64,000 bases of DNA from Chloroflexota bacterium (lineage in GTDB: Bacteria > Chloroflexota > UBA11872 > VXOZ01). Location: positions 2,784,001 through 2,848,000 of the forward strand of contig OZ244922.1 in assembly GCA_965221905.1 (NCBI GenBank), in the 5' to 3' direction. How positions within the stretch are numbered: position 1 is the stretch's first letter; each line of letters opens with the position of its first letter. A model generated the notes under the pieces. The model was given only the letters and a program-made list of their open reading frames with translations, ran no database searches and was not told the origin of the DNA. The translations under genes and the position numbers were made by a program. Shown piece by piece: positions 3,359 through 49,476 of this stretch.

Positions 3359-3426
3359 CGTCATTCCGGCGAAGGCCGGAATCCATCTTCACTCCACCAC
3401 TGGACTCCGGCTTTCGCCGGAGTGAC
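3359..3426. repeat. REP doublet (REPIN-like), family B
   Basis: CGTCATTCCGGCGAAGGCCGGAATCCA ... TGGACTCCGGCTTTCGCCGGAGTGAC inverted pair; related copies near 31573, 36573, 38062, 40596 and 42751. Confidence 0.85.
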
Positions 3427-25500: not shown

Positions 25501-25503
25501 GGC

Positions 25504-26247
25504 CTAGACGGTCACGGGTAACGGCCCCGCAACGGGGGAAAGCTCAAACACCCTACCGTAACCGGGTATCGCCGCAGTATGTCCCAGCGCGCGCAGGCAC
25601 TGCCAGTAGGTGGCTTGGTTGCTCGTGACAACCGGAATGCCGAGGTCCTCCTCAAGCGCTTGGATAACGTCCATGGTGCGGAGATTAGTGCAACTGATGA
25701 ATAGCGCGTCGGCGCCCGCGTCAACGTGCTCCCGGGCAAAGCGGTATGTTTCCGCAAGCGGCACAACGCCGATGTCGAAGGCCGTGAGAATTCCCATACC
25801 GGCCTGGCTCACCACCTCGAACCCCCAGCCCTCCAGGAACTTGACTTCAAGGTCATTGAGTTCCGGGATATACGGTGTCACCATGGAAACACGCTGTGCA
25901 TTGAGCGCACGAAGGGCACCGGCAACTGCTCCGGCAGTAGTCACTGCCTCAATCCGGCTGCCGCCCCGCAACCGTTCACGCAACGTCTCTTCACCATCAG
26001 TGCCCTCGAAGAAGCTGCCTGCAGTGCAAGCAAAGGCGATGACGTCTACGTTCGCGCTGAGCAATTCGTCTACGCCGCGATCAACGTGCGCACACATTTG
26101 CGCCATGTCGTCGGCATCCGAGCGGGAGTTGCGCATTCGTGTCGCGTAAACGGCAAATCCTTCGGGCAACAGCGCGCAGCCTTCCGGCTCCACCACCGTA
26201 TTCACCGACGGTACGAGTAATCCGATGCGTCCACGCCAACCAAACAT
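25504..26247 (-). CDS. Maleate cis-trans isomerase / Asp-Glu racemase family protein
   Basis: GLLVPS.N..VE, ACTAGS, TPY, SCTNL, TSNQA with two catalytic Cys; RBS GGAGGAG before ATG 26247. Confidence 0.85.
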   Translation of the reverse strand: MFGWRGRIGLLVPSVNTVVEPEGCALLPEGFAVYATRMRNSRSDADDMAQMCAHVDRGVDELLSANVDVIAFACTAGSFFEGTDGEETLRERLRGGSRIEAVTTAGAVAGALRALNAQRVSMVTPYIPELNDLEVKFLEGWGFEVVSQAGMGILTAFDIGVVPLAETYRFAREHVDAGADALFISCTNLRTMDVIQALEEDLGIPVVTSNQATYWQCLRALGHTAAIPGYGRVFELSPVAGPLPVTV

Positions 26248-26461
26248 GCCATCTCCTCCAATCACAATTGCTCAAGCGCCGTCGAGGGCTCAAGGTTGTT
26301 GCACTTCTTGGAACTCTAAAGCTAAAGAACACGATTACAAGACGTGTGCGACCGCAAAATTGCCGCTTCAACCCTCTATGCCGCACATCGCTCGTCGTTC
26401 GCTCTCTTGGAGCGCAAATTACTACAACGATGATAGCGCAGCAACCATGTCAAAACAACTA

Positions 26462-33198: not shown

Positions 33199-35310
33199 TT
33201 ACGAAATTCCGCGGTCTATCCAGACTGCCGCATAGAATTCTAACCGCGGGAGACGAACGCTCAGTTTACCGTCTGTGTAATTGGTTTCAAGCGCGCTGCC
33301 ATGCAAATCCCACGCCGACGTTGTCCGGTCGTTCGGCAAGGGTATGTGAAGAGTAATGTCATGCACCGGCGCTACGTGGCGAAAATAGCCGCGACTGGTA
33401 AGTGTAGCAGATAGATTGACAAAAAAGAACACGGATTGGCCCGCGGGCGCTTCTCGCCCCATGACGAGGACAGTGGGCGGCGCGTTCTCAACAGTGAATG
33501 GTAACGCTCCACCCACGTGCCGAATACACTTGACGAGCAACTGATTCAACTCGTCACAGGATTCTCTTGCTGCTGCGCACTCGACGGGCGCGGCGAAATA
33601 GACCACGTTGCCGTGTACCGTTGCTAACGGCATCTGCGGAACACCCGCAAAGGGCATCCGGCGGTTGAAGAGCGCGGTGTTTATCAGCGCTTGGTCGAAA
33701 TCTAGCACATCGGCAACTACCGTAGTGCCTGTAAGCGGCTCCGCTTGCACGACAGGCGCTTCGAAGTCCAGTCGCACGCCGGTCAAATCGTCCATGAACG
33801 CGGGCGCGTCATTCCGAACCCGCCCGTAGAAAAAGTCGCTCGCATGCTGACTCGGTACCGGGACGTGTGGTGAGAGATCGGCAACTTGACGGTGATGCGA
33901 CAGCGTATCAAAGCGGGTCACGCCAAGGAGATCACGTAGGGGATCAATGGCAGTGCCGTCTGATTTCGGTTCCGGCGCACTGCCCGTTCCCAGCCCGGTG
34001 CGATAACTTGCCAACAGGCCGCCTCCCTCTGCGACGAATTCCTCCACCTTTGCCACAATCGCCGCAGGTAAGACCTCCGCATTGCCCAGCAGCAGGCACG
34101 CATAGTCGCTGAGCGCACCGCAAGCAATGTCATCTTCGGTAACGATGGCGAACGGAATGTGCTCCTCGCACAGCAAGCGGTACCAACCATAGAAGCTAGC
34201 ATCATAGGCTTCGCCGCGTTGCCTTTGCGTTGCATGCGAGTGCAAGAGCGCAGCATAGCGTATTGGCGCCGTATCCACCGCCTCGGCATGGACGTTGCTT
34301 AACTCACGCAGCGCCGTGAAGAGCCGCCGGCGCTTTGGCTCCGGGTCGGTATCGAGCGCATCTTGATCGCGGAAGACAATCGGGTTGCCATTCGCCACCG
34401 CTGCCGCCGACTGCACAATGCCGTGCACGAGCGGCACGGAGCGCGGGGTGTAGTTGTCGTACTTCACTTCGCCATAGGCAGGAGCACCGCCGTACCGCTC
34501 GGTTAGTGTCCGGTCGGCCATTACCCCAATCGTGTCCCGCGAACCGTGACCGCCTTCAGTGCGGGTGCCAGCGACCACTTCCGGCAGAAATCCGTCAACA
34601 ATACCACGTCCCAAGCGTGCCCGGGGTCCGACGAGGTGGTTTGCGACAAGCGCAGTATCGGGACGGATTTCATTGATGACATGGCGTACGTTGCGAAGAA
34701 AGGCTACGCGCTTGGCATCGGCAAACTCCTCCAACTCCCGCTCGTTAGGATTCCCCCAGTAGATGTGGCCGTAGCGATAGCTTGCGGGCGTATCGGCTGA
34801 GAACGGAAGCTCTTTTCCGTAAATCTCTGCGAACTGCTGGCGACAGTACGCACAGTAACAGCCCGTCATCAACTGATCGAAATAGATGCCGTCTACCGCA
34901 TAGTTGGTCAATACTTCGCGCACCTGCGCAAAGACAAAGTCACGAAGCGGCCCATTATAACAAACCAATATGAACGGGCTGCCATCCGGGCCGCGTACAA
35001 TCCAGTCGGGATGTTCGCGAGCCTGCAGCGCATTGCCTGGCAGCGTTCCCAGCCAACACGCTATAAGCCTATTGCCACGATTGTGGTTCTCTGCGACAAG
35101 GGCTTCGAGCAGATCAAAGGCGAGACCCGGGGAGCGAGGCGCTAGGCTGCTATCGTAGATAACCGCGCCGCCGACTTGCACCATGTACTGGTGCACGGTC
35201 GCGCCCATCTCCACCATCTTCACCGCTTGGTGTCGGGCGTAGTCCCGCGTAACCGGACGATCCACGGTGAGCCAATCGAGATAGGCCGTTCCTGCTTGCA
35301 GCCACTTCAT
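33199..35310 (-). CDS. GHL6/GH42-like glycoside hydrolase with beta-galactosidase trimerisation domain
   Basis: HPDW, C.NGP, Y.VDGIYFD, CYC.YC, class I glutamine amidotransferase-like FVAEGGGLL. Confidence 0.65.
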   Translation of the reverse strand: MKWLQAGTAYLDWLTVDRPVTRDYARHQAVKMVEMGATVHQYMVQVGGAVIYDSSLAPRSPGLAFDLLEALVAENHNRGNRLIACWLGTLPGNALQAREHPDWIVRGPDGSPFILVCYNGPLRDFVFAQVREVLTNYAVDGIYFDQLMTGCYCAYCRQQFAEIYGKELPFSADTPASYRYGHIYWGNPNERELEEFADAKRVAFLRNVRHVINEIRPDTALVANHLVGPRARLGRGIVDGFLPEVVAGTRTEGGHGSRDTIGVMADRTLTERYGGAPAYGEVKYDNYTPRSVPLVHGIVQSAAAVANGNPIVFRDQDALDTDPEPKRRRLFTALRELSNVHAEAVDTAPIRYAALLHSHATQRQRGEAYDASFYGWYRLLCEEHIPFAIVTEDDIACGALSDYACLLLGNAEVLPAAIVAKVEEFVAEGGGLLASYRTGLGTGSAPEPKSDGTAIDPLRDLLGVTRFDTLSHHRQVADLSPHVPVPSQHASDFFYGRVRNDAPAFMDDLTGVRLDFEAPVVQAEPLTGTTVVADVLDFDQALINTALFNRRMPFAGVPQMPLATVHGNVVYFAAPVECAAARESCDELNQLLVKCIRHVGGALPFTVENAPPTVLVMGREAPAGQSVFFFVNLSATLTSRGYFRHVAPVHDITLHIPLPNDRTTSAWDLHGSALETNYTDGKLSVRLPRLEFYAAVWIDRGIS

Positions 35311-35336
35311 GCCGTCATCTTTCTATCAGATTCTGA

Positions 35337-36362
35337 TCATGCACGAACAAAAGTAATGTCAATAGTCGCGCCGGCCTGCACCCTGCAGGTAAAGCGTATC
35401 CGCCGTTCGCCGTCCGGAGAGACACTCACGGCTCCATCCGGCCCCTGCACCTGCACGGGACCGTGGTCATCTGCAAAAGTCACGAGAAACGTTAACTCAC
35501 CGTCCTCGATCTGTGTCGGAAGTTGCGGGAAATCAACATTGATAGAGGCACGAGAGTCCGACTCTTGCTCGATGGCAGCCGCGCAATGGCGTCGCAAGTA
35601 GGCATAGCGCACCACGTCGTCCGGATTTGCAGCCCACATTCTGTCGCCAAAGATCGTGCGCATCTGATCGAATCGCCCCTCCAGCGCGCTTGGTGAAATG
35701 CACTTGTGCCCCTGCGGTGTCTTGTAGAGTACCAAGTGCGTGACGTCTACCAGCCACTGCCCCTGCACCCGCTCCGGCTCGAACCCGCCACGCGAGAGCC
35801 ACGTAGGCAGGTATTCTATTTCGTCGTCCTCGCACAGGCGGTTGCGCCAGATGCTGAATGGATCGAAGTCCGGCTGGTTTATGTGTTCAGCGTCGTTGGA
35901 GGCACGTGTCAGACCGAGATAGCCCGGCACACGCCTCACCCACGCCCGCACCGTGTCGTAGACTTCGAAGCTGTTCCAAGAGGAAAAAATCGGCGCCGGT
36001 TGGCCGAGCGCCTGTTCCAAGATGTGGTAGGACTCCACAATCTCCTGCCTGAAGTCAATGCTATCGGGGTCGCGCAAAGGGGGATGGCAAAAGCTGTGAT
36101 TGCTTATGCTCCAGCCCTGCGACAAGAGGAACCTCAGATGCTCCGGCCCCATGTGGAAGTAGTCGTTCAGCGAACTACGCTCAACGTGGCGCTTCTCACC
36201 CAGTTGACCCGCCACCACCGCCACGTCGCCGGGGATGCCATACTGCTGACCAATGGGAAACGCATTCGCCAGACAATCGATGGTTCCTTCATCAAACACC
36301 ACCGAATAGACGAATGTTGCGTCATCTTTCCAGGGCGCAATCTCAACTGACGAAATTCTCAT
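35337..36362 (-). CDS. Polysaccharide deacetylase (NodB)-like protein
   Basis: VFDEG (cf. TFDDG), GW.I.NHS..HP metal motif. Confidence 0.65.
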   Translation of the reverse strand: MRISSVEIAPWKDDATFVYSVVFDEGTIDCLANAFPIGQQYGIPGDVAVVAGQLGEKRHVERSSLNDYFHMGPEHLRFLLSQGWSISNHSFCHPPLRDPDSIDFRQEIVESYHILEQALGQPAPIFSSWNSFEVYDTVRAWVRRVPGYLGLTRASNDAEHINQPDFDPFSIWRNRLCEDDEIEYLPTWLSRGGFEPERVQGQWLVDVTHLVLYKTPQGHKCISPSALEGRFDQMRTIFGDRMWAANPDDVVRYAYLRRHCAAAIEQESDSRASINVDFPQLPTQIEDGELTFLVTFADDHGPVQVQGPDGAVSVSPDGERRIRFTCRVQAGATIDITFVRA

Positions 36363-36572
36363 CGCAACTCCTTCACCCCCGTGAGCTACTTGTCCCTACC
36401 AGCATATCGCTAAAGGAAGCTAAACTGAGATTCTCTCCATATACCTTGAGACTAGCCACTTGAGGCGGTCTTGCTCCGGTAGCGCAGGCTTACAACCTGC
36501 GTCTGCTGCCACAATGCCGCACTAGGACGGCTTCGTCGTTGATTCGGGACAGAATCCCATTCAGCCCACGCC

Positions 36573-36602
36573 TCCTGGACTCCGGCTTTCGCCGGAGTGA
36601 CG
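36573..36602. repeat. REP family B copy
   Basis: CTGGACTCCGGCTTTCGCCGGAGTGACG. Confidence 0.75.
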
Positions 36603-36646
36603 ATAAGCCGTCTCTCTCCTTTCCGCCCGCTTCGCATCTCTCAGAA

Positions 36647-37987
36647 TCAGGATATCCGCGCAGAATCGTAGACGCCCGCCATGCCAAGGTCCAGCGGGTT
36701 TACTTGCACCCAGACCTCGTCCGGCATGGTATCCCCTTCCAGTTCAAGCGAAACCGAGACTCGCTCAAGACCGGGCGCCGGTGCAATGAGATGTCCTATT
36801 TGACGCCGGATCAGTATATTCGATTCTTCGCGATTAGCCGCAGGGTCGGCAGCCGACTTGGGATCGCCGTTGAAGGCGACCGTCAGCATCCGGGCGACAT
36901 CAAAAGCGCCGGTGTTTTCCACAACAATGTCTGCCACAAGCCGACCATCGTCTCGGCGTACCTGTGAAGACGCCGTGTCAATGTGCAATCCTGGTGAAAG
37001 CTCCTGCGGCCTGAGCGAAACGGCCCGGTACGCATCGAAGATGCCATGTCCGAGCAAGGGGTCCCAGCCATTGCCCTGTGACGTGTTGCGCAGTATTTGG
37101 CGAATTTCCCGATTGGAGAGGTGCGGAAAGCGCGAGAAGGCCAGCGCCGCCACGCCGCCGCCAAAGGCAGACGCCATGCACCCGCCCTGGAAAGGAATGT
37201 AGTCGTGGTCGCCGCCGGTGCCCCAAATTGAGTCGGTAGGGTCATCCGTATCGCGTTCGCCGCCGGGCGTCGCCGCTTCCGCATAGTCTGCCGAGGCCGC
37301 GATATTCGCCGCCAAGTCGTGTTTATTCGTCGAGCCGACGGCGAAGACGCTATCCAAACCGGCATTTACCGTCGCTACCCGGCGTCCGCGATTGTCAGCA
37401 GTGCCTTTGAAGATCAGGCAGCCCGACTGGTAGGCGTAGTCGAGCGCCTCGATCAGGCCGATGTTGTCGTACGGATAGCTGAAATCTGTACCCTTATAGA
37501 ACAATGGGACACCGTCGTCGTGGTTCAGCGTGATGTACCCGTGGGGCATTACGAGCACCTTAGCTCCATGGTCGACCGCATAGCGCACGGCGCGCGGCCA
37601 ACTCTTTTGGTGGTGCGGCTCGTACCCCACGCGCAGAATCATGATAGGACACTTGGGAGCGGTCGCCGCTACCTCTCCCACCACAAACGCATGGTGTCCG
37701 CGAAGATACATCGTATCCGAGCGGGACCCTTCGTATTCGAGTGTGGCGTCTTCCTCGGCAAAGTCCCAGCCGTGGACGTCACCCCGCGTGGGGCGCGGAT
37801 TCACCCACAAGTGACCCTCATGATCGGGATGGAAGCGATAGCCCAAATCAATCACCGCCACTACCACGTCAGGGCTGCCCTGCGTAATGGCGTGGGCCTC
37901 CGGCACACGCATCTGATCGAGCGCCCAATCATACGGCTCGCGCACGCCCTCCGGCAGCACACCGCTCTGCTTCTCGGCAATAGCCAT
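36647..37987 (-). CDS. S8/subtilisin-fold protein with a Cys nucleophile (Asp47-His98-Cys270, Asn199)
   Basis: VVVAVIDLG, GWDF, GHHAFVVG, GTADN, VFAVGST, QGGCMASAFGGGVAAL, LGHG..DAYRA; no signal peptide or prodomain. Confidence 0.85.
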   Translation of the reverse strand: MAIAEKQSGVLPEGVREPYDWALDQMRVPEAHAITQGSPDVVVAVIDLGYRFHPDHEGHLWVNPRPTRGDVHGWDFAEEDATLEYEGSRSDTMYLRGHHAFVVGEVAATAPKCPIMILRVGYEPHHQKSWPRAVRYAVDHGAKVLVMPHGYITLNHDDGVPLFYKGTDFSYPYDNIGLIEALDYAYQSGCLIFKGTADNRGRRVATVNAGLDSVFAVGSTNKHDLAANIAASADYAEAATPGGERDTDDPTDSIWGTGGDHDYIPFQGGCMASAFGGGVAALAFSRFPHLSNREIRQILRNTSQGNGWDPLLGHGIFDAYRAVSLRPQELSPGLHIDTASSQVRRDDGRLVADIVVENTGAFDVARMLTVAFNGDPKSAADPAANREESNILIRRQIGHLIAPAPGLERVSVSLELEGDTMPDEVWVQVNPLDLGMAGVYDSARIS

Positions 37988-38061
37988 TCTTGTCTCCTTT
38001 CGTACAGTCTCACTTCAGCCGAATTCGTTATTCCGGTTGAGCATATCGGGTCGACTCTGTC

Positions 38062-38089
38062 CGTCATTCCGGCGTAAGCCGGAATCCAG
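38062..38089. repeat. REP family B copy, with a truncated arm at about 38026
   Basis: CGTCATTCCGGCGTAAGCCGGAATCCAG. Confidence 0.7.
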
Positions 38090-38217
38090 TCCGCTCCATT
38101 AGGGCATTCGGGCGCTCACCGGAACCGGGATTGCCCCCTAGTGATACCTGCAGGAAATGTTAAACCCTATCCCCTCGGTCCATAATTCCGGTGCAAGCCG
38201 AAATCCTGTCTTCATAC

Positions 38218-39327
38218 TCACACAATAGCGACTTCCTGCGGGATCGTCCCCAAGCGCTCAAACCCATCGCTCCTCAGCACATACATGTCCTCCTCCAGCC
38301 AGGAGGACTCCAGAGAGACCACGTTGCCTTCCGCAAACGAAATCTCCGGCCTCACATCAACGGCAGAGGGCAGCAAGCTGCCTATCAACGGTTCCTCGTG
38401 CTTATCCATGCCCACGCCGTGAATCCACCACGAGTACTCCTCCGTATCGCTGAACTCGCGTTGGCAGGCATCGAATACTTCGCGCTTGGTCTTCCCCGGA
38501 CGCACGAATTCTTCCATGAAGAGTTGGCGCTCGCGGTGATTCTGCCAGACGGCCAGGCTCTCCTTGCGCGGCGTACCCACACAGAAGTTGAATTTTTGAT
38601 CGGAAAAGTAGCCGGCGGCGATAGCGGCAAGGTCGACGCGGTACACCAACCCCGCTTCCACCACGCCGGGACCGCGGATCACCGCTGCACCCGGCTGATC
38701 CCGCGAGCTGGAACCGGCGTGGGGCAGCATCCACGACACCGGAGACGTATTGATGGGCAAGGCACCGTTATCAAGCACTGACTTCGCCCATACCGTCACG
38801 AGGTCTTGAAACGTGATGCCCACACGCACCTCCCGCAGCATTTCTCGGTATCCAGATTCGGAGGCGGCAATTGCTTTGCGTAGCCATTGAATCTCCTGTG
38901 GCGTCTTGCGCGCCCGCGCGTCGGCAAGCAAGAGATCGGCGGAGACAAACGTGGCTTCCGGCAGCAGTTCTCTAAGCCGCTCCAAATCGCTCACCGCGGC
39001 AAAGTCCATGTCCAGACCGATACGCGCCCGTGCCAGGCCGCGTTGGCGCATCTCATCCGCCAGCGCCGTCAAACGCGCCGCACGGGTGTGGTCGGGCCCT
39101 AAGCTGTCAACCGGCAAGTCTGTATCCCGGAATCGACTGCCGAACGTAAACGACCGATCGGGAGGTATAAGGCACGTCATCCATGGCGCTAAGCCCTGCG
39201 GCTCATTGAGCCACGGGCCCTCGCTAATTGCACCCGCCAAATAAGCGCAATTCCGCATGCCCAGGACAAGCAGCGCGTCAAACTGCTGCTCCGCCATAGA
39301 CTGTGTTATGCGCACAAAGTCAGCCAT
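38218..39327 (-). CDS. M24 family metallopeptidase (Xaa-Pro/creatinase fold)
   Basis: RARKTPQEI, metal ligands VDL, YFSD, HGVG...HE.P, SLE, EED; start uncertain (39327 or 39351). Confidence 0.8.
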   Translation of the reverse strand: MADFVRITQSMAEQQFDALLVLGMRNCAYLAGAISEGPWLNEPQGLAPWMTCLIPPDRSFTFGSRFRDTDLPVDSLGPDHTRAARLTALADEMRQRGLARARIGLDMDFAAVSDLERLRELLPEATFVSADLLLADARARKTPQEIQWLRKAIAASESGYREMLREVRVGITFQDLVTVWAKSVLDNGALPINTSPVSWMLPHAGSSSRDQPGAAVIRGPGVVEAGLVYRVDLAAIAAGYFSDQKFNFCVGTPRKESLAVWQNHRERQLFMEEFVRPGKTKREVFDACQREFSDTEEYSWWIHGVGMDKHEEPLIGSLLPSAVDVRPEISFAEGNVVSLESSWLEEDMYVLRSDGFERLGTIPQEVAIV

Positions 39328-39464
39328 GCTCGACACCCAAGTCAATCCCAAGAAATGTTCACGCCTTGCCGAGAGACAAATTCCGCCGGAGAAACTGGAC
39401 TGGTCGGTCAGTATTCATTGGCCATGCCACTCCTACACATCGAATAGGCCCAGCATACGGGGCT

Positions 39465-40544
39465 CTATTGACTCTCCCATAGCTCCTTATAGGCCGCATA
39501 TGCGGCTCGCGTCAGTTCGCCCAACTTGTCACTGCGCGCCTCCCAGTCGCTCACTGAGCGAAATGAGAACAGGATCTCTTCCGTCACCCGGTCCGTTACC
39601 TGTGCGCTACGTGGGGTGCGCGTCTCATATGGCATTTCTTGAGCATCCAGCTGATCGAAACTCTCCTTGCAGAGATCAATTGCCCAAGGATAGAATCGCA
39701 CCTTGACGGAATTCTGCCCCTTGTCTACTTCAATGGACGAGAAAGCATTATAGGAATAGCCTCCCGCTTCAGTCGGTTTAGACAGGTAGTAAGTAATTCC
39801 TGTCTTTCTTGGTTCTGGATAGGGATCCGAATACTTCCCTTGTACAATTTCCTTCCAGGACGTAGAGAACATCTCACGCGCAGCAGCCACTAGGTCGTCT
39901 ACGCCCACCTCCCTAGCTAGACTCTTTAGCGAACGCCATAGCTCCTCCCGCGATCTGCCAGGAGCAACCTCTTCTTTCGCAGCCACCTGCACCTGTTTGG
40001 CTAGCAAGGTTTTGCCAAGATATTCAAACCCGTAGAAAGTAAGCAAGGAGATGTCTATGCCGTGCTCGGCCAGATAGTCCACCATGCGCCGAGTTGCGTC
40101 ATCCGTTCCAAGTCCAACTAGGTACATTCGGAGTGGCCGCAGCGAGTCCAGCGAGCCCCTGAACCCTTCCCTGTACCATTCCACAAAGTCGTCGATCTTC
40201 TCTATTTCAGAATGGCCGGAGTTTTCAGTGATAAGGGCTGCCAATTCGCTCTCGCTCATGGCTTCAAGTGCAGAGCCATAGTCTATTACCTGCGCCACCG
40301 CCTCTCGGGATAGCGTGCCGCGCTTTAGCTCGAAAACCACGAGCCTGCCTTCACCATCTAATCCGAGTATATCCAGGAATCCGTCACCTACAGGTGTTTG
40401 GCGACCTATCAACTTTAGGTTCGGCTGCAACATCTCTGGATGCGCGACGAGCGTGTCCTCCAGACTACTCTCCAAGTCCATCGCTGTACGCTCTAATCGC
40501 ACTATCTGAGAGTCTTCAATTGCCCAGACCTCAATTTCATCCAT
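39465..40544 (-). CDS. NucS/DUF91-like PD-(D/E)xK nuclease-domain protein
   Basis: E..LED, GRQ, LDILGLD..GRLVVFELKR, AQVIDY; lower GC; ATG 40544 with GAGG. Confidence 0.8.
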   Translation of the reverse strand: MDEIEVWAIEDSQIVRLERTAMDLESSLEDTLVAHPEMLQPNLKLIGRQTPVGDGFLDILGLDGEGRLVVFELKRGTLSREAVAQVIDYGSALEAMSESELAALITENSGHSEIEKIDDFVEWYREGFRGSLDSLRPLRMYLVGLGTDDATRRMVDYLAEHGIDISLLTFYGFEYLGKTLLAKQVQVAAKEEVAPGRSREELWRSLKSLAREVGVDDLVAAAREMFSTSWKEIVQGKYSDPYPEPRKTGITYYLSKPTEAGGYSYNAFSSIEVDKGQNSVKVRFYPWAIDLCKESFDQLDAQEMPYETRTPRSAQVTDRVTEEILFSFRSVSDWEARSDKLGELTRAAYAAYKELWESQ

Positions 40545-40595
40545 TTGCAACCTCAATGATGATGGGAATCGTACCCACAAAGACGTCAATCGTCA

Positions 40596-42434
40596 CTAGA
40601 CTCCGGCTTTCGCCGGAGTGACGGTGGGCTCCAGCCAGATTGGGCTCGTCCACGCGCGATTGCCGTCCTGCTGGCGCACGCGCAGGTAGCAATAGTGGGC
40701 GTCCATAGGAGAAAACCGCAGCGGCACCTCGTCCTCCAATTGCACGTGCTGCTGACTGGGTGTGTAACTTCTGGCCGTGTCGCCGTTCACCACCAGGTCG
40801 ATCTGTTCGATGTCTGCCGTACCCACCACGTCCGCCGTAAAGCCAAAGCGGTCCGCCTGCACTGTGGAACCCACCCACGCGCCGTTCACGCGAAAATCAA
40901 CGATCATGCGCACGCCGCTTGTAGCGTAGCAGCGCCGGTTGAAGAGCGCATCGAAGATGGACGGTCTGTCCAGCCGTTCCGCCCACACGCCGGTTAGCCC
41001 GGCTACACCAGCCAGCGGCCCCGGTTCTTTGTAGGGATTGGCAGGCCGGCTGTCGTGGGTGTCGCTCCCGCTCACGAAGCCGAGCTTCACGCCTTGCATC
41101 AGGTACTGGTTGATCTTCTCTTCCTCCACCTCGCCGTCCGTTCTCTGCTTCTGATAGATCTCCGCCAGATGTTCTTGGACGTAGAAGTGTGTATGGAAGT
41201 GACCGTGCATTAGAGCTCCGCGGCGTTTCATTTCGCGGTAGAACTCTTGATAGTCGTTGCAGAAGACCGTGTCAGGGTGGAAACGCGCTTGGAGTCTCGG
41301 ATCGTGGGCCGCGGGCCGATCTTCGCAGAAAACCGGGGGCTGTCCCGCAATCTCTGGGAAGAAGGCATGCCGGTGACTGCCGTCGGGGGTGGTGCCGAAC
41401 TCCGCTGAAGGCAGCGCGACGAATTCCCCAGGTAGGTCATACTGCTGCCATGCGTCCTGAAGCGCTTCCCAAGTTTCTTTGATAGAAATACTGTAGGAGA
41501 ACAACTGGCCTCCGGCAAAGTCCAGGTCATTCACATCTTTGCCCCAGGCGAAGTGCTCGACGAAGGGGCGTTGGCTGAAGAGCATGCCGTGGGGATCACC
41601 CCAATAGAGCGAGAAGGGCGGCGGCTCTTCTGCGACCCGCACCGGGTTGCTCACGGCCTCGATGCCCCGATACGACGCCGTGACACTGTCTACCAGTCCC
41701 CGCACGGCTATCGTCCCTTCGGCGCTAAACGAATTAAGCGCGACCGTAGTCTTGCCACTGCCGGAACGCAAGGTCACCTCTCCCTGGGCATCGCGCACAG
41801 GATTGCCAAACCTATCGGTGACGACAACGCGAGTGGTCGCCTGCCCCGTGGTGTGAGAAGGCGTGGTTACTTGCAGGGCCGCCGGTTCAGCCTCCTTAAT
41901 CGCGAGCGGATTGCTCTCCAGCAAGGATAGTTCCGTATTCCGCGGCAGAAAGTAGTGGTGTTTGTCGCGTTCCGGGTGGTAGAACGTAAGCTCGCCAGAC
42001 GGGTCCTCGACCAGCCAAAACCGAAAGGCGTCGATGGCATTGCGGGGTAGCAGGAAGCCGTCAGGAGCAGTCTGCAGTTTCACCGTAACACTCTCTGCGG
42101 CCGTCACCGCGCCCTCAACGCACGTCACATGCACCACGTGGAGGAATTCAGGCGCCGGGAAATGAATATCAAACGTCCGCACCACGCCGCCACCAACGAG
42201 CGCCTCGGCCTCCCATGCCGATCCCGTCGGCCCGTGCACCGCAATCGATTCTGGCGACTCGAAGTTAAGCACCCACTCGTCAAGCTGGCGAATGTCGAAG
42301 AAGAACCAGAGATTCCCACCCGTCTGCAGGCCACCCGCCGGCGGCGTGTAGTGAAGCTGCAGCGTGACCGCTTCAGCAACTCGCAGCGGACCATCTACAC
42401 TGACCCGGAATCGCCCATTCACCCCCAAAGACAT
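40596..42434 (-). CDS. DUF3604-like PHP-fold protein, paralogue A
   Basis: YWGDPH, SGSDTHD, GLTGVWA, AL.NRRCYATSG, YLRV.Q.DG..AW.SPIW. Confidence 0.75.
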   Translation of the reverse strand: MSLGVNGRFRVSVDGPLRVAEAVTLQLHYTPPAGGLQTGGNLWFFFDIRQLDEWVLNFESPESIAVHGPTGSAWEAEALVGGGVVRTFDIHFPAPEFLHVVHVTCVEGAVTAAESVTVKLQTAPDGFLLPRNAIDAFRFWLVEDPSGELTFYHPERDKHHYFLPRNTELSLLESNPLAIKEAEPAALQVTTPSHTTGQATTRVVVTDRFGNPVRDAQGEVTLRSGSGKTTVALNSFSAEGTIAVRGLVDSVTASYRGIEAVSNPVRVAEEPPPFSLYWGDPHGMLFSQRPFVEHFAWGKDVNDLDFAGGQLFSYSISIKETWEALQDAWQQYDLPGEFVALPSAEFGTTPDGSHRHAFFPEIAGQPPVFCEDRPAAHDPRLQARFHPDTVFCNDYQEFYREMKRRGALMHGHFHTHFYVQEHLAEIYQKQRTDGEVEEEKINQYLMQGVKLGFVSGSDTHDSRPANPYKEPGPLAGVAGLTGVWAERLDRPSIFDALFNRRCYATSGVRMIVDFRVNGAWVGSTVQADRFGFTADVVGTADIEQIDLVVNGDTARSYTPSQQHVQLEDEVPLRFSPMDAHYCYLRVRQQDGNRAWTSPIWLEPTVTPAKAGV

Positions 42435-42537
42435 CACCAATGCTCCCTGGGCTCTACCATTTGAAGTGACGGATACACAGTACACTTGTGCTACGGCATC
42501 GTATCATAAACACACCTCTTGGCAGTAAGCAGACGAG

Positions 42538-42887: not shown

Positions 42888-44702
42888 CTACGCCATGGTC
42901 TCCAGCCAAATTGGGCTCGTCCACGCGCGATTGCCGTCCTGCTGGCGCACGCGCAGGTAGCAGTAGTTTGCGCCGATAGGAGAGAACCGCAGCGGCACCT
43001 CATCCTCAAGCTGCACGTGCTGTCGATTTGGCGTGTAGCTTCTGGCCGTATCGCCATTTACCACCAGGTCTATCTGCTCGATGTTTGCTGTTCCGACCAC
43101 GTCCGCCGTAAACGTGAAGCTGTCGGACTCTACCGTGGAACCTATCCAACTATCGTTCACGCGAAAGTCTACGATGATGCGCACGCCGCTGGTGGCGTAG
43201 CAGCGTCGGTTGAAGAGCGCATCGAATAGTGTGGGGCGGTCCAGCCGCTCCGCCCACACACCCGTCAGTCCTCCGGGACCGGATGGCCCCGGCTCCTTAT
43301 AGGGGTTCGCGGGCCGATTGTCGTGTGTGTCGCTGCCGCTAACGATGCCAAGCTTTAGGCCCCGCATCAGGAACTGGTTGATCTTTTCTTCCTCGGTAAC
43401 CCCGTCGGTCTGCTGCTTCTGATAGATTTCGGCCAGGTGTTCCTGCACGTAGAAGTGGGTGTGGAAGTGACCGTGAATGAGCGCTCCCCGGCGTTTCATT
43501 TCCCGGTAGAATTCCTGATAATCGCGGCAGAATACGGTATCAGGATGGTACCGGGCGCGGAGCTTTGGATCGTTCGCCGCGGGACGGTCTTCACAGAAGA
43601 CCGGCGGTTGGCCCGCAATCTGCGGGAAGAAGCCGTGACGGTGACTGCCGTCGGGCCCGGTGGCGAACTCCGCCGACGGCAACGCAACGAATTCACCCGG
43701 CAGGTCATATTTCGCCCACGCGTCCTGCAACTCTTCCCAGATCTCACTGATACATATGCTGTAGGAAAAGAGCTGACCTCCCGCAAAGTCTAGATCGTTT
43801 ACGTCCTTGCCCCAGGCGAAGTGTTCGACGATGGGGCGCTGGTTGAAGAGCATGCCGTGCGGGTCACCCCAATAGAGCGTGAAAGGGTCAGTATCCTTAT
43901 CGACTCGCACCGGGTTGCTCACGGCCTCAATGCCCCGATACGAGGCCGCGACTCCATCTACAGGACCCTGCACCGGCACTGTTCCCTCAGTGCTGAACGA
44001 GTTGAGCGCCGTCGTTGTCTCGCCGCTGGCAGTCCGCAGAGAGACCTCACCTTCGGCATCCCGGACGGGATTGCCAAATCTATCGGTGACGACGACCCGT
44101 GTCGTTGCCTGCCCCGTGGCAAGAGAGGGCGTGGTCACTTGCAGCACGGCCGGTTCGGCAGCATTGATCGTGAGCGGATTGCTCTCCAAGACCGAAAGTT
44201 CCGCCTCACGCGGCAGGAAGTAGTGGTACTTATCGCGGTCGGGGTGGTAGAGGGTAAGCTCGCCTGTTGGATCCTCCACGAGCCAGAAGCGGAAAGCGTC
44301 GATGGCGTTCTGGGGAAGTATGAATCCTTCAGGAACGCTACGCAGTTGAATGGCGATGTGATCGCCTGCCGCCACTGTGCCACCGACGCACTTCACGTGC
44401 ACCGCGTGGAGGAATTCGGGGGCCGGAGAGTGAATGTCAAACGTGCGCACCGTGCCGCCATCAAGGAGCGCCTCCGCTTGCCAGGCCGTGCCTGACGGCC
44501 CGTGCACGGTAATGGCATCGGCCGTCCTATACGTCTGCCTGCGTTCGCCAAACTGACGGATGTCGTAGAAAAACCAGAGATTGCCGCCAGTCTGCATACC
44601 GCCGTCAGGAGGCGCGTAGTGCAACTCCAGAGCCACAGTCTCTGCAACCTGCAGCGGCCCTTCTACACGTACTTGAAACCGTCCGTTGGCATTCGCCGAC
44701 AT
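42888..44702 (-). CDS. DUF3604-like PHP-fold protein, paralogue B
   Basis: Full-length close paralogue of 40596..42434. Confidence 0.75.
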   Translation of the reverse strand: MSANANGRFQVRVEGPLQVAETVALELHYAPPDGGMQTGGNLWFFYDIRQFGERRQTYRTADAITVHGPSGTAWQAEALLDGGTVRTFDIHSPAPEFLHAVHVKCVGGTVAAGDHIAIQLRSVPEGFILPQNAIDAFRFWLVEDPTGELTLYHPDRDKYHYFLPREAELSVLESNPLTINAAEPAVLQVTTPSLATGQATTRVVVTDRFGNPVRDAEGEVSLRTASGETTTALNSFSTEGTVPVQGPVDGVAASYRGIEAVSNPVRVDKDTDPFTLYWGDPHGMLFNQRPIVEHFAWGKDVNDLDFAGGQLFSYSICISEIWEELQDAWAKYDLPGEFVALPSAEFATGPDGSHRHGFFPQIAGQPPVFCEDRPAANDPKLRARYHPDTVFCRDYQEFYREMKRRGALIHGHFHTHFYVQEHLAEIYQKQQTDGVTEEEKINQFLMRGLKLGIVSGSDTHDNRPANPYKEPGPSGPGGLTGVWAERLDRPTLFDALFNRRCYATSGVRIIVDFRVNDSWIGSTVESDSFTFTADVVGTANIEQIDLVVNGDTARSYTPNRQHVQLEDEVPLRFSPIGANYCYLRVRQQDGNRAWTSPIWLETMA

Positions 44703-45123: not shown

Positions 45124-46674
45124 CTAGAAAATCCGGCGCGCGTCCTCGATCCAAATGGGGCTCGACCACGCCATCTCGCCGTCTTCCTGCGTTACCCGCA
45201 CGTAATACCAGTCTGCCCGGACTTGGGGCATGTCGAGCTGGTCCAAGGTGAAAGCGCACTCCCAACCGGGCTTCTCCACCACGTGCCAGTCCTGGTTGTT
45301 CTTAACCACGACAACCTTAGCAAGCGGCGCCGTGCCGTGGACGCGCACGCGCATCTGCTTGGGCGGCGTTTGCACGCTGATGATTTCGCCCATAGGCTGA
45401 TTATCAACATCGAAGTCGAGATAAATGCGCACGCCGGTCGTGCCGATTGCACGGCGTTGCCAGAGGGAACTAAACATGGCGTCTCGTTCGCGGCGGCGTG
45501 ACCAGAGACCTGTCATGCCGGCGTGGTGGTTGAACGTGGTCAGTTTGATGGGCAAGTGCGCAATCTGCACGCTGCTCGTGGCGCGGCCGTCGTGACTCTC
45601 ACTACCGCCCACGAAGCCAAAGCGAAAGCCCTGCCGCAGTCCGTCCTGCAGAAAGTGACCGGTTGCTTCGTACGGCGGATACTCTGCTTGGGGTTCGTCC
45701 CACTGCGTGCGTTCGTTTCGTCCCTTCAGCGCAAAGGGTTCTCCCTCGTGCTCGCTACTTCCCCAATGGCTAAACACCTCCATGAGGCGCTCGAATTCCG
45801 GGTCCATGGTCTCCCAGTTGTGCCAGATGCGATTTCCCAGGCGCGCCGGGTGGTGAGGAATCGACAAAATGTCTCGGCCCGTGCGCGATATGCGACGAAA
45901 AGTGTTGAATAGGTCTTGCGGCGTGTTGGATCCCTTCCAATTGCTGGATATGAGCGGCATGTCGCCGAAGCGAAAGATGACATTGCGGTGGCCGCAGTCG
46001 GCGTCCGGCCCCCGGTTCCACGACCACTCGTAACCAAGCAACGTCACAAAGCGTTCCGGCTGGTTATAGAACTCCGCTCCTTCTTGAATCTCGCGCCATT
46101 CGTCCGTACTAAGCGCGTAATCATGGTCTGTTAAGGCCGTAAAGTCCAGATGGACCACGTCGCGCGCAAATCGATATACCTCATCGACAGTGGCAGGTCC
46201 ATAGCTCCAGAGCAGGGGGTCTGTGCGCTTGCGGCTGGGATTTTCCAGACGGTGGCAGTGCAAGTCTCCCCAATAGAGCTTGTGGTCGCCCTTGTAGAGA
46301 AACGCCGGCGCCCAACCGGGATTGCTGATGGCTTCTATGCCGGTCTCGCGGTCGCGTGCACGCACACGAAACACTCGGTCCTTCTCTGCAACATGTCCGC
46401 GCTCTGCGTGGTGACTATCGTACTCCGGCAGCATTGGCACGACCGCCGGGACCTCACCACTGGCCCCTTCCAAGGTGAGTTCCAGGTGGGCGCTCTGTTT
46501 GGGCAGGTGAAATCCCCATTGGTCCCGCAATTCAATGCCGATTTTGAATTCGCCATTGCTCACGTCCGGCGGCACAATACTGGGCACGTTCACGCGGATT
46601 TCCGCGAGTTCTGGTGTGCCTTTATAGTCCAACGGCAAGCGGATCAGGTTCGGATCGTATCTCTCTACAGCCAT
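45124..46674 (-). CDS. DUF3604 / PHP-fold metallohydrolase, paralogue C
   Basis: YWGDLHCH, ALTDHD, GYEWS, GHRNV, IPHH, GFVGGSESH; RBS AGGAG before ATG 46674. Confidence 0.8.
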   Translation of the reverse strand: MAVERYDPNLIRLPLDYKGTPELAEIRVNVPSIVPPDVSNGEFKIGIELRDQWGFHLPKQSAHLELTLEGASGEVPAVVPMLPEYDSHHAERGHVAEKDRVFRVRARDRETGIEAISNPGWAPAFLYKGDHKLYWGDLHCHRLENPSRKRTDPLLWSYGPATVDEVYRFARDVVHLDFTALTDHDYALSTDEWREIQEGAEFYNQPERFVTLLGYEWSWNRGPDADCGHRNVIFRFGDMPLISSNWKGSNTPQDLFNTFRRISRTGRDILSIPHHPARLGNRIWHNWETMDPEFERLMEVFSHWGSSEHEGEPFALKGRNERTQWDEPQAEYPPYEATGHFLQDGLRQGFRFGFVGGSESHDGRATSSVQIAHLPIKLTTFNHHAGMTGLWSRRRERDAMFSSLWQRRAIGTTGVRIYLDFDVDNQPMGEIISVQTPPKQMRVRVHGTAPLAKVVVVKNNQDWHVVEKPGWECAFTLDQLDMPQVRADWYYVRVTQEDGEMAWSSPIWIEDARRIF

Positions 46675-46989
46675 GAAATCGCTCCTAAGAAAATACGAGA
46701 TCAAGTATTAGGAGATTTTGGCCTGCAGATGCGCAGCCAATAGCATGCGGTATGTTGTGATTAACCACCGTCAAATTAACGAAAGAGTCAACTATTCGCG
46801 CACATATATCCCAGTACTATTGTAAGAATACATCAATATCGCTATCATTGGCATGCGCAGACAAAGGGAGCCAAAGAAAGCATCAGAACACCGTCTTATG
46901 TCAACGGATTCTTTGTCTCCTTGCTAACTGCTAGAATCCTCACTGCATCTCGACAAGGACTCACCTTTACAGTCATTAGGAGAACCACA

Positions 46990-47655
46990 ATGCGCACACT
47001 GATTAGATCGTTACTAGCACTGCTAGCACTGTTCTTGGTAATCACACCGGTGGCGCTTTTCGCACAAAGCGAAACAGCAAGGCAAATTGTAGAGCTGGTA
47101 TTTTCCGATGACAAGTCTTCAATCACACTTGATGATTCCGTCACAAGCACCGCAGTTGTATCTTTCACTCATGATGGCAAAGACTATCAAATGAAAGTGC
47201 CAGTCACGATCGAGATTGATGAAACCATTGCTCTTCAAGACAGCATGAGCACGACCGAAAGCGCGGCCCGCGTTGGAGTCTATGGGATTGAAGTAACGGC
47301 CTTGGCGGAGACGACTGATGAGATAGTGATAGATTACAGCAGCTTTGAGCCAAGCAGTGATGAGCACAAATTGGCGCTCGTTGGGTTTACTCTTACAAAC
47401 CTCAGTGATTCTGCCAGAGAGTTTTCCTCATGGTTCAGTGCCGAGACCCTCATCGGGATTGATGATGCTGGGCGCAAGTTTGAGAGTGAACGAATACTAG
47501 GATGCGGCGAAGTTAACCCAGGGGACAAAGTCAATTGCATAGCCGTATTCAACCTAGTGAATGAAGTGACACTAACAAAGATTGAGATTCATGCGCTTGA
47601 TGAGAATACGGTTACTTTGCCTGAAGCTGAAGAGTACGAAGAGGTAGAAGATTAG
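46990..47655 (+). CDS. Secreted acidic beta-rich protein (DUF4352-like)
   Basis: Signal peptide MRTLIRSLLALLALFLVITPVALFA; F.LTN.S, D..G..F, VNPG motifs; lower GC. Confidence 0.6.
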   Translation: MRTLIRSLLALLALFLVITPVALFAQSETARQIVELVFSDDKSSITLDDSVTSTAVVSFTHDGKDYQMKVPVTIEIDETIALQDSMSTTESAARVGVYGIEVTALAETTDEIVIDYSSFEPSSDEHKLALVGFTLTNLSDSAREFSSWFSAETLIGIDDAGRKFESERILGCGEVNPGDKVNCIAVFNLVNEVTLTKIEIHALDENTVTLPEAEEYEEVED

Positions 47656-47957
47656 TTATCGAAAAAGATAGGCGCCACATAGGAATTGAGAAGACTTCGC
47701 TAATTCATGTCTCTAGCGAAACGCGCTCGTTTGGCATTGCCACATTTGTAGTACCATCTGTGACTTGATGTCCACAGATTGCCCGCAATGCGAAGAGGCA
47801 CCCAACACCAACACCTAAGAGTGCAGAATCGGATGCCTCTCTTACGTTCAAGCAGTCACCTACTCTGGCTATTGAGCTAGTAAAGTACGCATTACCTTCG
47901 ACGTAACTCAACTGGGTAAGCCTCTCACCTGTCGTAATTTCGGCTCTTGCCCAGCCG

Positions 47958-49325
47958 CTACTCGCGCGCAAGCCACTCGTCGAGCACGGTCTGCGCTTGT
48001 GCCTCAGTGTTGCGCAAGCCTTCCTCGATGGTGATCTTGCCGGTAAGGATGTCCGGCACGCCGCCGCTCATAATGCCCAGCATTTCGTTGGCGCCGGGAG
48101 CCGAAATCACGAAGCGCCGCCCTTCCATCACGTCAACCTGGTGAATGACGAACGGATCGCCCCCGTGGTAGCGCTCGTCGTACGAAGTGTCGACGCGGAT
48201 CGGGAGGCGGTCGAAGTGCTTGGCCCAGCGGATGTTGACGTCCTCGACACCAAAATGCTCCATAAAGGTCCAGCCGAGATCCTTCTGCGTAGAGCCAACA
48301 GGCGATACCCACGTGTGGCAGCCGCCATAGGTGCGGTTGAAGCCATCCGCGGGTTTCGGCCAGTGACCCCAGTGATACTCGAGGTCCGGCGCTTCCTTAG
48401 CAATGCTCTCGAAGCGGATGGAGCCGGTGTCATAGAGGTTTGCCAGACGGCTGGCGTAGAAGTGGGCGCGCGCGTTCTCGTCACCTTTGAACTCTTGCAG
48501 CGCGTCGTAGCCGCCCTGCATATCGTGCACCTTCTTCAGCCAGGCCATGCCTTCACGGCCTTCCTCGGTGTTGAGGGTGATCTTCGTGCGCTCTTCATTG
48601 ATGTTCTCGCCGCCGAGCTGCCACATGGGCACCATCCACACGTGGCGGTTGGCCCACAACGGACCCCAGGCCACCTGTTCAATCGTACCGCTGCCGCCGC
48701 TCTTGAAGGACTTTGTAATAATGTCCTCTATCTGATCCCATGTCTCCGGCGGATTCTCCGGGTCTACGCCCGCATCGAGGTACAGATTGTCGTGGATGTA
48801 GAAGAAGCGCACATCGGGCCCAAAGGGCATGCTCCACACCTGCCCCTTATGGTCCATGTCTATGCGCAGCGAGGGCCAGATGTCATCCTTATTGATCACC
48901 GTTGACTGCGCGTAGTATTGCTCTAGGCTGTCAACGATACCGCCGGCCGCTACCTGCTGGTTCTGCCAGACGCCCACCTGACCGATGTCAGGAGACGCAT
49001 TCGCTGCTTGCGCGGCAATCAAGATGGTGAAGCGATTGCCTTCCGGTATCAGGTCCTTAACGGTAAGGCCCTCCACCAGGGCCTCGATCTCTTGCTTGAC
49101 TTCTAAGCCCAAGCCCGCTGAGAGGTCCCACCGCCTGGTTGTCCAGACTTCAAGCTCGACAGCCTCTGCCGGCGCCGGCTCTGAATCCTCCGCTTTCGGT
49201 GCCTCTTCCGCTGGAGCATCTGCGGACTCCATCGGGGCCGGCTGACCACAGGCTACAAACAATGCGCCTGCAGCGGTCGCGCCAACGCCACCGAGAAATG
49301 TCCGTCTCAGGATGCGGTCTCTCAT
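47958..49325 (-). CDS. Sugar-type ABC extracellular solute-binding lipoprotein (Tat)
   Basis: LRRTFL, FVAC lipobox, AGVDPE.PPETWD. Confidence 0.85.
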   Translation of the reverse strand: MRDRILRRTFLGGVGATAAGALFVACGQPAPMESADAPAEEAPKAEDSEPAPAEAVELEVWTTRRWDLSAGLGLEVKQEIEALVEGLTVKDLIPEGNRFTILIAAQAANASPDIGQVGVWQNQQVAAGGIVDSLEQYYAQSTVINKDDIWPSLRIDMDHKGQVWSMPFGPDVRFFYIHDNLYLDAGVDPENPPETWDQIEDIITKSFKSGGSGTIEQVAWGPLWANRHVWMVPMWQLGGENINEERTKITLNTEEGREGMAWLKKVHDMQGGYDALQEFKGDENARAHFYASRLANLYDTGSIRFESIAKEAPDLEYHWGHWPKPADGFNRTYGGCHTWVSPVGSTQKDLGWTFMEHFGVEDVNIRWAKHFDRLPIRVDTSYDERYHGGDPFVIHQVDVMEGRRFVISAPGANEMLGIMSGGVPDILTGKITIEEGLRNTEAQAQTVLDEWLARE

Positions 49326-49476
49326 TCCGTTTTCCTTTCGATTCATCAGACACGCAACTCATCTCGCCTCATACTTTAGCCCTTTCATTGGAGTGAGTGC
49401 AACCGCATGTGCGCGGGCTTCTCTATACTTAGGAGCAGAAGCAGATTTCCGCAATGCGCTCAGGGAAAAGAAACCC

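Follow-up and report, generated by a model that had tools for sequence, protein, structure and literature searches.

Classical subtilases (MEROPS S8, Pfam PF00082; subtilisin BPN', thermitase and the mycosins among them) use a Ser nucleophile with Thr at the preceding position (-1) and Pro four residues downstream (+4), and the subtilisin clan is, to our knowledge, regarded as serine-only. Cys has been placed at the nucleophile in the laboratory. Thiol-subtilisin was first made chemically in the 1960s and was crippled as a protease; it is also obtained by S221C, and the further change P225A relieves crowding and gives subtiligase. Small residues at position 225, Gly included, show good synthesis-to-hydrolysis ratios, and deletion of the calcium loop gave the calcium-free scaffold for peptiligase (passages of PMC7921005 on these variants). 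The present work concerns a natural gene with the same nucleophile exchange. It lies on the minus strand at 36647..37987 of a 64,000-nucleotide stretch of a Chloroflexota genome (contig OZ244922.1, positions 2,784,001 to 2,848,000; the whole stretch is called the window), and had been proposed from the letters of the DNA to encode a natural subtiligase, an intracellular thiol-subtilase acting as an acyltransferase or ligase (the original prediction). The gene and the elements of its product are listed below.

36647..37987, minus strand: Cys-subtilase gene ('thiol-subtilase'), a complete open reading frame (ORF) of 446 aa; product probably cytoplasmic, with a putative Cys-His-Asp triad
36998..37939, minus strand: S8 catalytic domain, residues about 17-330 (Pfam match 40-315, AlphaFold2 secondary structure, Foldseek template-modelling score on the target, TMt, 0.82)
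37847..37849, minus strand: codon of Asp47, putative catalytic Asp, motif VAVID
37694..37696, minus strand: codon of His98, putative catalytic His, with the conserved His99 next to it
37538..37546, minus strand: Pro148-His149-Gly150, in place of the S-L-G strand that lines S1 and the backbone-binding site (alignment)
37391..37393, minus strand: codon of Asn199, oxyanion-hole Asn in the motif D-N-R-G-R-R
37178..37180, minus strand: Cys270 codon TGC, nucleophile position, motif G-G-C-M-A (codon check and alignments)
37166..37168, minus strand: Ala274 codon GCC, the Pro position of classical subtilases (codon check)
36653..36988, minus strand: C-terminal beta-sandwich domain, residues 334-445, CARDB-like (all-beta at high confidence in the AlphaFold2 model)

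With 52.9 bits (E 4.5e-14; cutoff 21.8), residues 40-315 of the protein matched Pfam PF00082 (Peptidase_S8). In the PDB sequence search the best matches were thermitase, variants of subtilisin BPN' and mycosins, and the score for the mycosin class (NCBIfam TIGR03921, 94.2 bits) was under the equivalog cutoff of 278.75. To place the catalytic residues, 60 family members were combined in a profile and compared with PDB chain 1gns_A, a BPN' variant of reduced length whose printed sequence has Cys at the nucleophile. In this alignment (E 9e-19) H98 corresponded to the first His of HGTH, N199 to the oxyanion Asn of BPN' and C270 to the nucleophile, and R200 fell on the Glu next to the oxyanion Asn. 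A MAFFT alignment of 75 domains, 40 of them classical S8, agreed in register: D47 aligned with the classical Asp, A274 stood where most classical rows have Pro, and P148-H149-G150 stood where they mostly have S-L-G. The order of Asp, His and oxyanion Asn (D47, H98, N199) was canonical in both alignments. A pairwise alignment with thermitase, in which the His region was one helical turn off register, was rejected in favour of the profile and multiple alignments, which agreed with each other. The residues named in the original prediction, including the codons of C270 (TGC, 37180..37178) and A274 (GCC, 37168..37166) and the replacement of SLG by PHG, were all found as it had described them.

The AlphaFold2 model, computed on the family alignment, had a mean predicted local distance difference test score (pLDDT) of 93.8 and a predicted TM score (pTM) of 0.92, with the subtilase domain followed by an all-beta region at 334-445. 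Foldseek returned 382 PDB matches at E<=0.001. The best were subtilisins and the engineered peptiligase series (TMt 0.80-0.86), the first of them a crystal structure of a peptiligase (7am3; E 7.8e-19, TMt 0.82), in agreement with the S8 fold proposed earlier. From the alignment and the fold match we infer a Cys-His-Asp triad geometry. For the C-terminal domain, the nearest ESM Atlas clusters had PF07705 CARDB in 15-86% of their members, and the query itself had no Pfam CARDB match. By its sequence and fold the protein is a homologue within the subtilase superfamily, yet it departs from the 'serine' feature by which that superfamily is defined.

The departure is a property of the family. A word-indexed search found 188 relatives. 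The 120 listed, at 47-97% identity and in nearly all cases about 445 aa long, were aligned with the query in 121 rows. The motif G-x-C-M-[AS] was present in 120/120 relatives listed. Close homologues carrying Ser, which would have pointed to a one-off change, were sought and none was seen: in the column of the G-T-S-M-A Ser of S8 serine peptidases all 121 rows have Cys. N199, G268 and G269 were likewise invariant (121/121 each), and high conservation was seen for H98 (119/121), H99 (114/121), D47 (119/121, the other two rows being gaps), P148 (120/121), H149 (119/121), G150 (115/121) and R200 (117/121). At +4, 108 of the 121 rows have Gly, 11 have Ala and 1 has Ser; none has Pro. The motif GxCMA-x-A, raised as a possible clade-wide feature in the original prediction, holds family-wide in its Cys part, whereas the final Ala, as in Ala274 of the window protein, is a minority state. 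Source databases name the family proteins 'S8 family serine peptidase' despite the absent Ser.

Over 48 loci the Cys codon was TGC in 38 and TGT in 10, and the median ratio of non-synonymous to synonymous substitution (dN/dS) was 0.058 (91 pairs, 14 orthologues of the window's genus). The S8 ORF was intact in every locus examined, with no stops inside. Because Cys270 is conserved in 121/121 rows, both Cys codons are in use and dN/dS is low, Cys270 cannot be put down to chance or to a sequencing error; it is a family trait under purifying selection, as had been claimed against decay. It is accordingly very improbable that the protein is a pseudoenzyme, a binding protein or a serine protease that has decayed or was mis-sequenced. 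The database name given to proteins without the Ser would fit such a view, as would the greatly reduced protease activity of laboratory thiol-subtilisin (passages of PMC7921005 on that enzyme); against it, the four catalytic positions show no or almost no variation in the 121 sequences, the local motif is remodelled co-ordinately, and the codon use, dN/dS and intact frames are those of a maintained gene.

The relation of the family to other subtilases was addressed by an exhaustive search of representative proteins, which gave 6752 matches at E<=1e-3 and 31 at E<=1e-30. Below the family, a second tier at 33-36% identity also reads GGCM but retains Pro-His-Val after it; further matches beyond this tier read GTSM. 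A quick IQ-TREE phylogeny was made of 75 rows: the query, 23 family, 11 second-tier and 40 classical sequences, the last hand-picked among 150 listed. One branch, with a Shimodaira-Hasegawa-like approximate likelihood ratio test (SH-aLRT) value of 100, set 35 rows (33 Cys, 1 Ser, 1 Gly) apart from all 40 classical sequences, 39 with Ser and 1 with Leu. GGC was present in 24/24 family rows (query plus 23) and 8/11 second-tier rows; classical rows mostly read GTS. The family sits in a larger natural Cys-subtilase clade of apparently single origin.

Several members of this clade deviate at the active site. In the subgroup P0152, P0155, P0163 and P0204, Glu replaces the catalytic Asp. Two rows inside the clade on long branches are P0138, with Ser at the nucleophile (G-Q-S-A-A), a possible reversion, and P0145, a possible pseudoenzyme in which the nucleophile is replaced by Gly, the preceding residue is Cys and Asp is replaced by Glu. 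A sister group of Cys-subtilases (P0139, P0140, P0142, P0144) keeps Pro at +4. The N-termini of P0139, P0140 and P0144 are signal-peptide-like, and these would be secreted thiol-subtilases, a separate puzzle. P0140 and P0142 exceed 1100 aa and have a C-terminal lectin-like match (P0140) and a weak glycosidase-like match (P0142).

The active site of the window's family is remodelled at further points. From the catalytic His to the conserved Ala-Pro there are 12 residues in the family, against a median of 22 in second-tier and classical rows. This short spacing, 10 residues fewer after the His helix, is exclusive to the family among the groups compared, and in the profile alignment to the shortened chain 1gns_A the segment after the His helix aligns without a gap. 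The missing segment we take, by BPN' numbering, to be the calcium-binding loop. The family and the second tier both have about 20 extra residues behind the S1 strand (34 residues to the next helix, against 14). Compared with classical subtilases, the family has the same fold, the same Asp-His-nucleophile order, the oxyanion Asn and the G-x-x-M-A start of the nucleophile helix. It differs in having Cys, Gly and Gly/Ala for Ser, Thr at -1 and Pro at +4, in the loss after the His helix and the gain after the S1 strand, in P-H-G for S-L-G, and in the Arg-rich D-N-R-G-R-R for the usual G-N-[DE]-G.

Thiol-subtilisin, subtiligase, peptiligase and omniligase have the Cys nucleophile, the small +4 residue and the absence of the calcium loop in common with the family, and these engineered ligases are its best PDB matches by profile (1gns_A) and by fold (7am3). 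The window protein is, in contrast to them, natural and cytoplasmic, about 20-23% identical, and extended by the C-terminal beta-sandwich; it keeps Met after the Cys, where peptiligase variants carry M222P. The Thr-to-Gly change at -1 is seen in the family and is absent from the engineered chains compared. The family thereby parallels the engineered enzymes in uniting three of their features (Cys, small +4 residue, loop absence) and adds the Thr-to-Gly change of its own. Cys together with a small non-Pro residue at +4, the subtiligase-like combination, is present in the window protein (C270, A274) and family-wide.

All PDB chains encountered with Cys at the nucleophile were engineered BPN' variants (1gns_A and the peptiligase, omniligase and thymoligase series). 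No natural Cys-nucleophile subtilase was described in the literature searched in full text, which lies largely outside subscription journals, so that an earlier report is possible; nor was one met by term look-up in the matching passages of subtilase surveys and related papers (PMC9825947, PMC6895249, PMC2605481, PMC9549277).

Exchange of Ser and Cys within a conserved triad follows the same logic in unrelated folds, for example in the chymotrypsin-fold 3C proteases and in MacB-TE. The 3C cysteine proteases show a hydrolytic outcome of the exchange. MacB-TE is a Cys-dependent thioesterase cyclase with an acyl-transfer outcome (PMC13288461).

These comparisons bear on the possibility that the enzyme is a natural 'subtiligase'. 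In that case the thioester would be resolved mainly by an amine or another nucleophile, and the protein would be a physiological transpeptidase, acyltransferase or ligase making an amide or ester on a metabolite, glycoconjugate or peptide. The union of Cys, Gly/Ala at +4 and loop absence, as in the laboratory ligases, speaks for it; Gly is among the well-performing +4 variants (PMC7921005, in its passages on position 225), and a Cys swap in another Ser-hydrolase fold gave the acyl-transfer cyclase MacB-TE (PMC13288461, as above). Peptiligase 7am3 is also the top Foldseek match, a ranking that comes partly from the shared Cys and short loop. The sister Cys groups, however, keep Pro and have signal-peptide-like N-termini, so that Cys alone is no sign of a ligase. 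Together with the gene neighbourhood described below, this leaves the ligase reading a minority chance.

The start codon of 36647..37987 is the first after the upstream stop, so that no upstream extension is possible. No I9 propeptide domain was detected in the 446-aa protein by the Pfam scan, and no hydrophobic N-terminal segment or signal peptide was evident in the N-terminus, judged by eye; a hydropathy scan was non-discriminating because the first beta-strand (VVVAVID) dominates the score. The putative catalytic Asp is already at residue 47 (family median 46). Because the ORF cannot be extended, the I9 domain is absent and Asp is so close to the N-terminus, the sequence is consistent with an intracellular location, and the protein is probably cytoplasmic. 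The earlier claim of a protein without signal peptide or I9 prodomain stands, and the family differs in this respect from secreted subtilases, in which these elements are typical, though not universal. Intracellular subtilisin proteases (ISPs) of Bacillus carry a short inhibitory N-terminal extension. They use Ser and show no specific sequence kinship with the window protein, whose nearest PDB sequences are thermitase, BPN' and the mycosins. Like the window protein, ISPs have no signal peptide and are cytoplasmic (PMC9549277, in the passages on these enzymes).

The source genome is a 3.52-Mb single contig, 99.6% complete, with three Cys-subtilase genes. Paralogue 1 (contig G000 C1, 3293031-3294350, minus strand) is a family member, 58% identical, with S-H-C for P-H-G and H-G for H-H. 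Paralogue 2 (G000 C1, 2509619-2510761, minus strand) belongs to the distant subgroup with Glu for the catalytic Asp, and Pro is retained after the Cys. Among 201 Chloroflexota genomes sampled, the family was present at E<=1e-80 in 7/7 genomes of the window's genus and in 0/194 others. In a species-representative genome collection 475 pattern-matched stretches were found, 338 of which encode a relative; 79 loci were kept. Near-identical loci are labelled as Chloroflexota metagenome-assembled genomes (MAGs), and kept loci at 45-56% identity carry at least nine other phylum-level labels. These labels include Gemmatimonadota, Verrucomicrobiota, Kiritimatiellia, Armatimonadota, Planctomycetota, Lentisphaerales, Spirochaetales and Clostridia, with one 'Paceibacterota' bin and one Bathyarchaeota bin. 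No cultured carrier was seen among the 79 kept loci, all of which are from MAGs. The patchy distribution fits an accessory, horizontally moving gene or transferable catabolic trait. No longer, fused forms of the Cys-subtilase were seen at E<=1e-30, which is weak evidence; a 980-aa 'fusion' (locus L037) and extended ORFs (L030, L038) were dismissed as artefacts of the first-start-codon rule in GC-rich open frames.

The genes around the Cys-subtilase were compared over the window and 48 loci (L001-L048). Neighbour genes were called by a simple longest-ORF rule and clustered by all-against-all BLASTP, and cluster representatives were named by Pfam/NCBIfam; subtilases were collapsed at 80% identity, giving 28 groups. 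The neighbours of the gene in the window are as follows.

35337..36362, minus strand: CE4-like metalloenzyme of 341 aa, downstream partner (PF01522, E 4.8e-9, 36.7 bits against 23.1)
33199..35310: GHL6/GH42M-like gene
38218..39351, minus strand: M24/creatinase-prolidase-like gene, upstream neighbour, kept beside both family paralogues and in Chloroflexota loci only
40596-42485, 42888-44702 and 45124-46704, minus strand: three tandem DUF3604/CehA-McbA-like metallohydrolase paralogues
21698-26265 and 49312-50274: hydantoinase/oxoprolinase B and A, an Asp/Glu/hydantoin-racemase-like (arylmalonate decarboxylase) gene, and creatininase

A CE4-like gene (polysaccharide-deacetylase fold) was present in 28/48 loci before de-duplication and in 14/28 groups after it; in 10 groups it was adjacent on the same strand, in both gene orders. 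Gfo/Idh/MocA oxidoreductases were as frequent (14/28 groups; adjacent on the same strand in 4), followed by URO-D/MtaA-like genes (10/28; 7), DegT-type aminotransferases (9/28; 1) and AraC regulators (8/28; 0). The DUF3604/CehA-like family was near the Cys-subtilase in 7/28 groups. Solute-binding proteins were also among the neighbours. Further genes came from single loci: L046 has sialidase-like, NanA-like and FG-GAP genes, L047 a MetH-like corrinoid methyltransferase with PGA_cap and a metallophosphoesterase, L023 an M14 peptidase, and L032 GH78, PFK and DUF362. The MetH-like gene (L047, 726-3197) and the MtaA/URO-D-like genes, which adjoin the S8 gene in 7/28 groups, suggest that the module also includes a methyl-transfer step, possibly O-demethylation.

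In the CE4-like partner D24, E25, H89, S90, H93 and H209 are invariant over 18 sequences, and D24, E25, H89, H93 and H209 presumably correspond to the CE4 metal-site motifs. Its AlphaFold2 model (pLDDT 89.7) retrieved CE4 structures in Foldseek, the best being 4dwe, an uncharacterised Bacteroides ovatus protein (E 2e-9). The product of 35337..36362 has the profile, the fold and the Asp/Glu-His-His site of a CE4/NodB-type deacetylase. Complex prediction for the S8 and CE4-like proteins scored 0.00 (mark 0.32), a value counted neither way for binding.

The window region, which also has an MR/MLE enzyme and a solute-binding protein, is amidohydrolase-rich, and the neighbourhood points to catabolism, with uptake and stepwise dismantling of amide-bearing sugars or nitrogen-rich small compounds. 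A catabolic role is suggested because AraC regulators, solute-binding proteins, glycosidase-like genes and amidohydrolases lie nearby. Nonulosonic acid, rhizopine-like inosamine or muropeptide catabolism, for which the basis was single loci or family names, is not claimed. These neighbours point to breakdown and not to the synthesis that a natural subtiligase would carry out. No adenylating enzyme, ATP-grasp, carrier protein, precursor peptide or exporter was recurrent in the 48 loci, so that such a ligase would have no conserved source of an activated acyl donor; the nearby DegT aminotransferase (9/28 groups) could supply an amine acceptor. For the original prediction this means that the intracellular part fits the sequence, whereas the ligase role is unsupported and the conserved neighbours look catabolic. 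A macrocyclase or leader-peptidase role in the making of ribosomally synthesized and post-translationally modified peptides (PatG-like or LanP-like) was also rejected as the principal explanation, as no precursor, modification or export genes were recurrent in the 48 loci.

The most likely function, on an evenly balanced judgement, is that of a narrow-specificity cytoplasmic thiol amidohydrolase or peptidase working alongside the CE4-like de-N-acylase. In such an enzyme Cys270 would be the nucleophile, served by His98, Asp47 and the oxyanion Asn199 on the subtilisin fold. The active site would have been refitted for sulfur by Gly for Thr before the Cys, Gly/Ala for Pro at +4 and deletion of the loop after the His helix. 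Catalysis would proceed through a thioester acyl-enzyme, the outcome of which would be hydrolysis. The substrate may be an imported, probably anionic, amide-containing nutrient; candidates are an amino sugar or sugar acid bearing an N-acyl group or a peptide, or a small compound resembling a peptide, on which the conserved CE4-like de-N-acylase would act jointly.

The pattern of conservation bears on the size of the substrate. Hot spots were the nucleophile helix (GGCMA-x-G/A-F), the His-His pair, the PHG strand, D-N-R-G-R-R and the insertion 151-172. Residues 123-128, the counterpart of the S3/S4-wall strand, were variable among the 121 rows. Because conservation clusters at the S1/S1' sites (PHG, DNRGRR, HH) and the S3/S4-wall strand varies, the enzyme may recognise a small acyl group in preference to a long peptide. 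The conserved Arg200, Arg202, Arg203 and His149 at the S1 site, with an Arg in place of the S1-rim Glu, suggest an anionic group on the substrate.

A general or regulatory intracellular protease acting on cytoplasmic proteins, unrelated to the gene neighbours, would have the subtilase fold, the complete triad and the lack of a secretion signal in its favour. The backbone-binding strands of the substrate cleft are present in the alignment, and the genome has three Cys-subtilase genes. The small chance given to this role reflects the conservation just described, the repeated adjacency of the CE4-like gene in both orders and across phyla, and the absence of the family from all 194 other sampled genomes of the phylum, a patchiness unlike that of a housekeeping protease.

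Several points weigh against the hydrolytic, amide-directed function that we favour. The neighbourhood is heterogeneous, and 5/28 groups have no recurrent sugar-type neighbour at all. The guess of an anionic substrate derives solely from alignment to positions that we take, from BPN', to form the S1 site. Spacers of 230-285 bp with hairpins resembling repetitive extragenic palindromic (REP) elements part the S8 gene from both its neighbours. Engineered subtilisins with Cys221 catalyse acyl transfer well and amide hydrolysis poorly, and a small +4 residue raises the synthesis-to-hydrolysis ratio (PMC7921005, in the passages that compare these variants). By this precedent the natural Cys with its small +4 residue could favour transfer.

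The hairpins in the two spacers were located by depth spike and pattern.

36575..36602, no strand: REP-like palindromic hairpin between the S8 and CE4-like genes (spacer of 284 bp)
38060..38094, no strand: REP-like palindromic hairpin upstream of the S8 start (spacer of 230 bp)

The stem is TCCGGC / GCCGGA with a loop of 3-6 nt. A further copy is at 38180-38210, and the pattern was found at 3364, 31574 and 38067. In the genome 111 copies were counted, whereas ten shuffled stems gave 0-11. In metagenome contigs these hairpins give large depth spikes and false joints, and they produce spurious small ORFs ending in '...TPAKAGV'. These hairpin-bearing spacers weigh against assuming co-transcription of the S8 gene with its neighbours. 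A scan of 35200..39600 gave no promoter-like site and one terminator-like site, inside the CE4-like gene, and was uninformative. Metatranscriptomic contigs from three libraries of two studies cover the ORF or close orthologues at 90-99% identity, one RNA-library contig of 1597 nt spanning 36574..38069. This cover is weak support for expression, as DNA carry-over is possible and contigs give neither level nor strand.

Other features of the window were noted. A 374-aa protein with a NucS_C-like nuclease domain (39465-40589, minus strand) is matched, at E 7e-36, by PDC-S11, a candidate single-gene defence family of PADLOC; its gene is present only in some Chloroflexota loci and looks inserted between the M24 and DUF3604 genes, outside the S8 module. 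For the S8 and CE4-like proteins PADLOC gave no defence family. No Rfam RNA family and no tRNA were found in the window. G+C content dips at 6001-8000 (0.478) and 46001-48000 (0.505) from about 0.59 elsewhere, the first dip overlapping a 680-aa ORF at 6034-8076.

The family shows that the Ser-to-Cys swap exists naturally, is ancient and strongly selected, and occurs in many bacterial phyla and some archaeal MAGs with the same compensating changes. In terms of mechanism it shows a Ser-triad scaffold retuned for sulfur, including the Thr-to-Gly change, and the label 'S8 family serine peptidase' on these proteins is affected. Hundreds of natural Cys-subtilases that are free of the calcium loop, independent of a propeptide and cytoplasmically folding would be available as scaffolds for ligase or amidase screening. 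If the ligase reading were true, the protein would be a physiological thioester-forming transpeptidase or acyltransferase with solutions that engineers later found, and with the wider clade included the subtilisin clan would be of mixed Cys/Ser type, with secreted and cytoplasmic members. The pairing with the CE4-like gene marks an uncharacterised catabolic module of Verrucomicrobiota, Kiritimatiellia, Armatimonadota, Planctomycetota, Chloroflexota and others.

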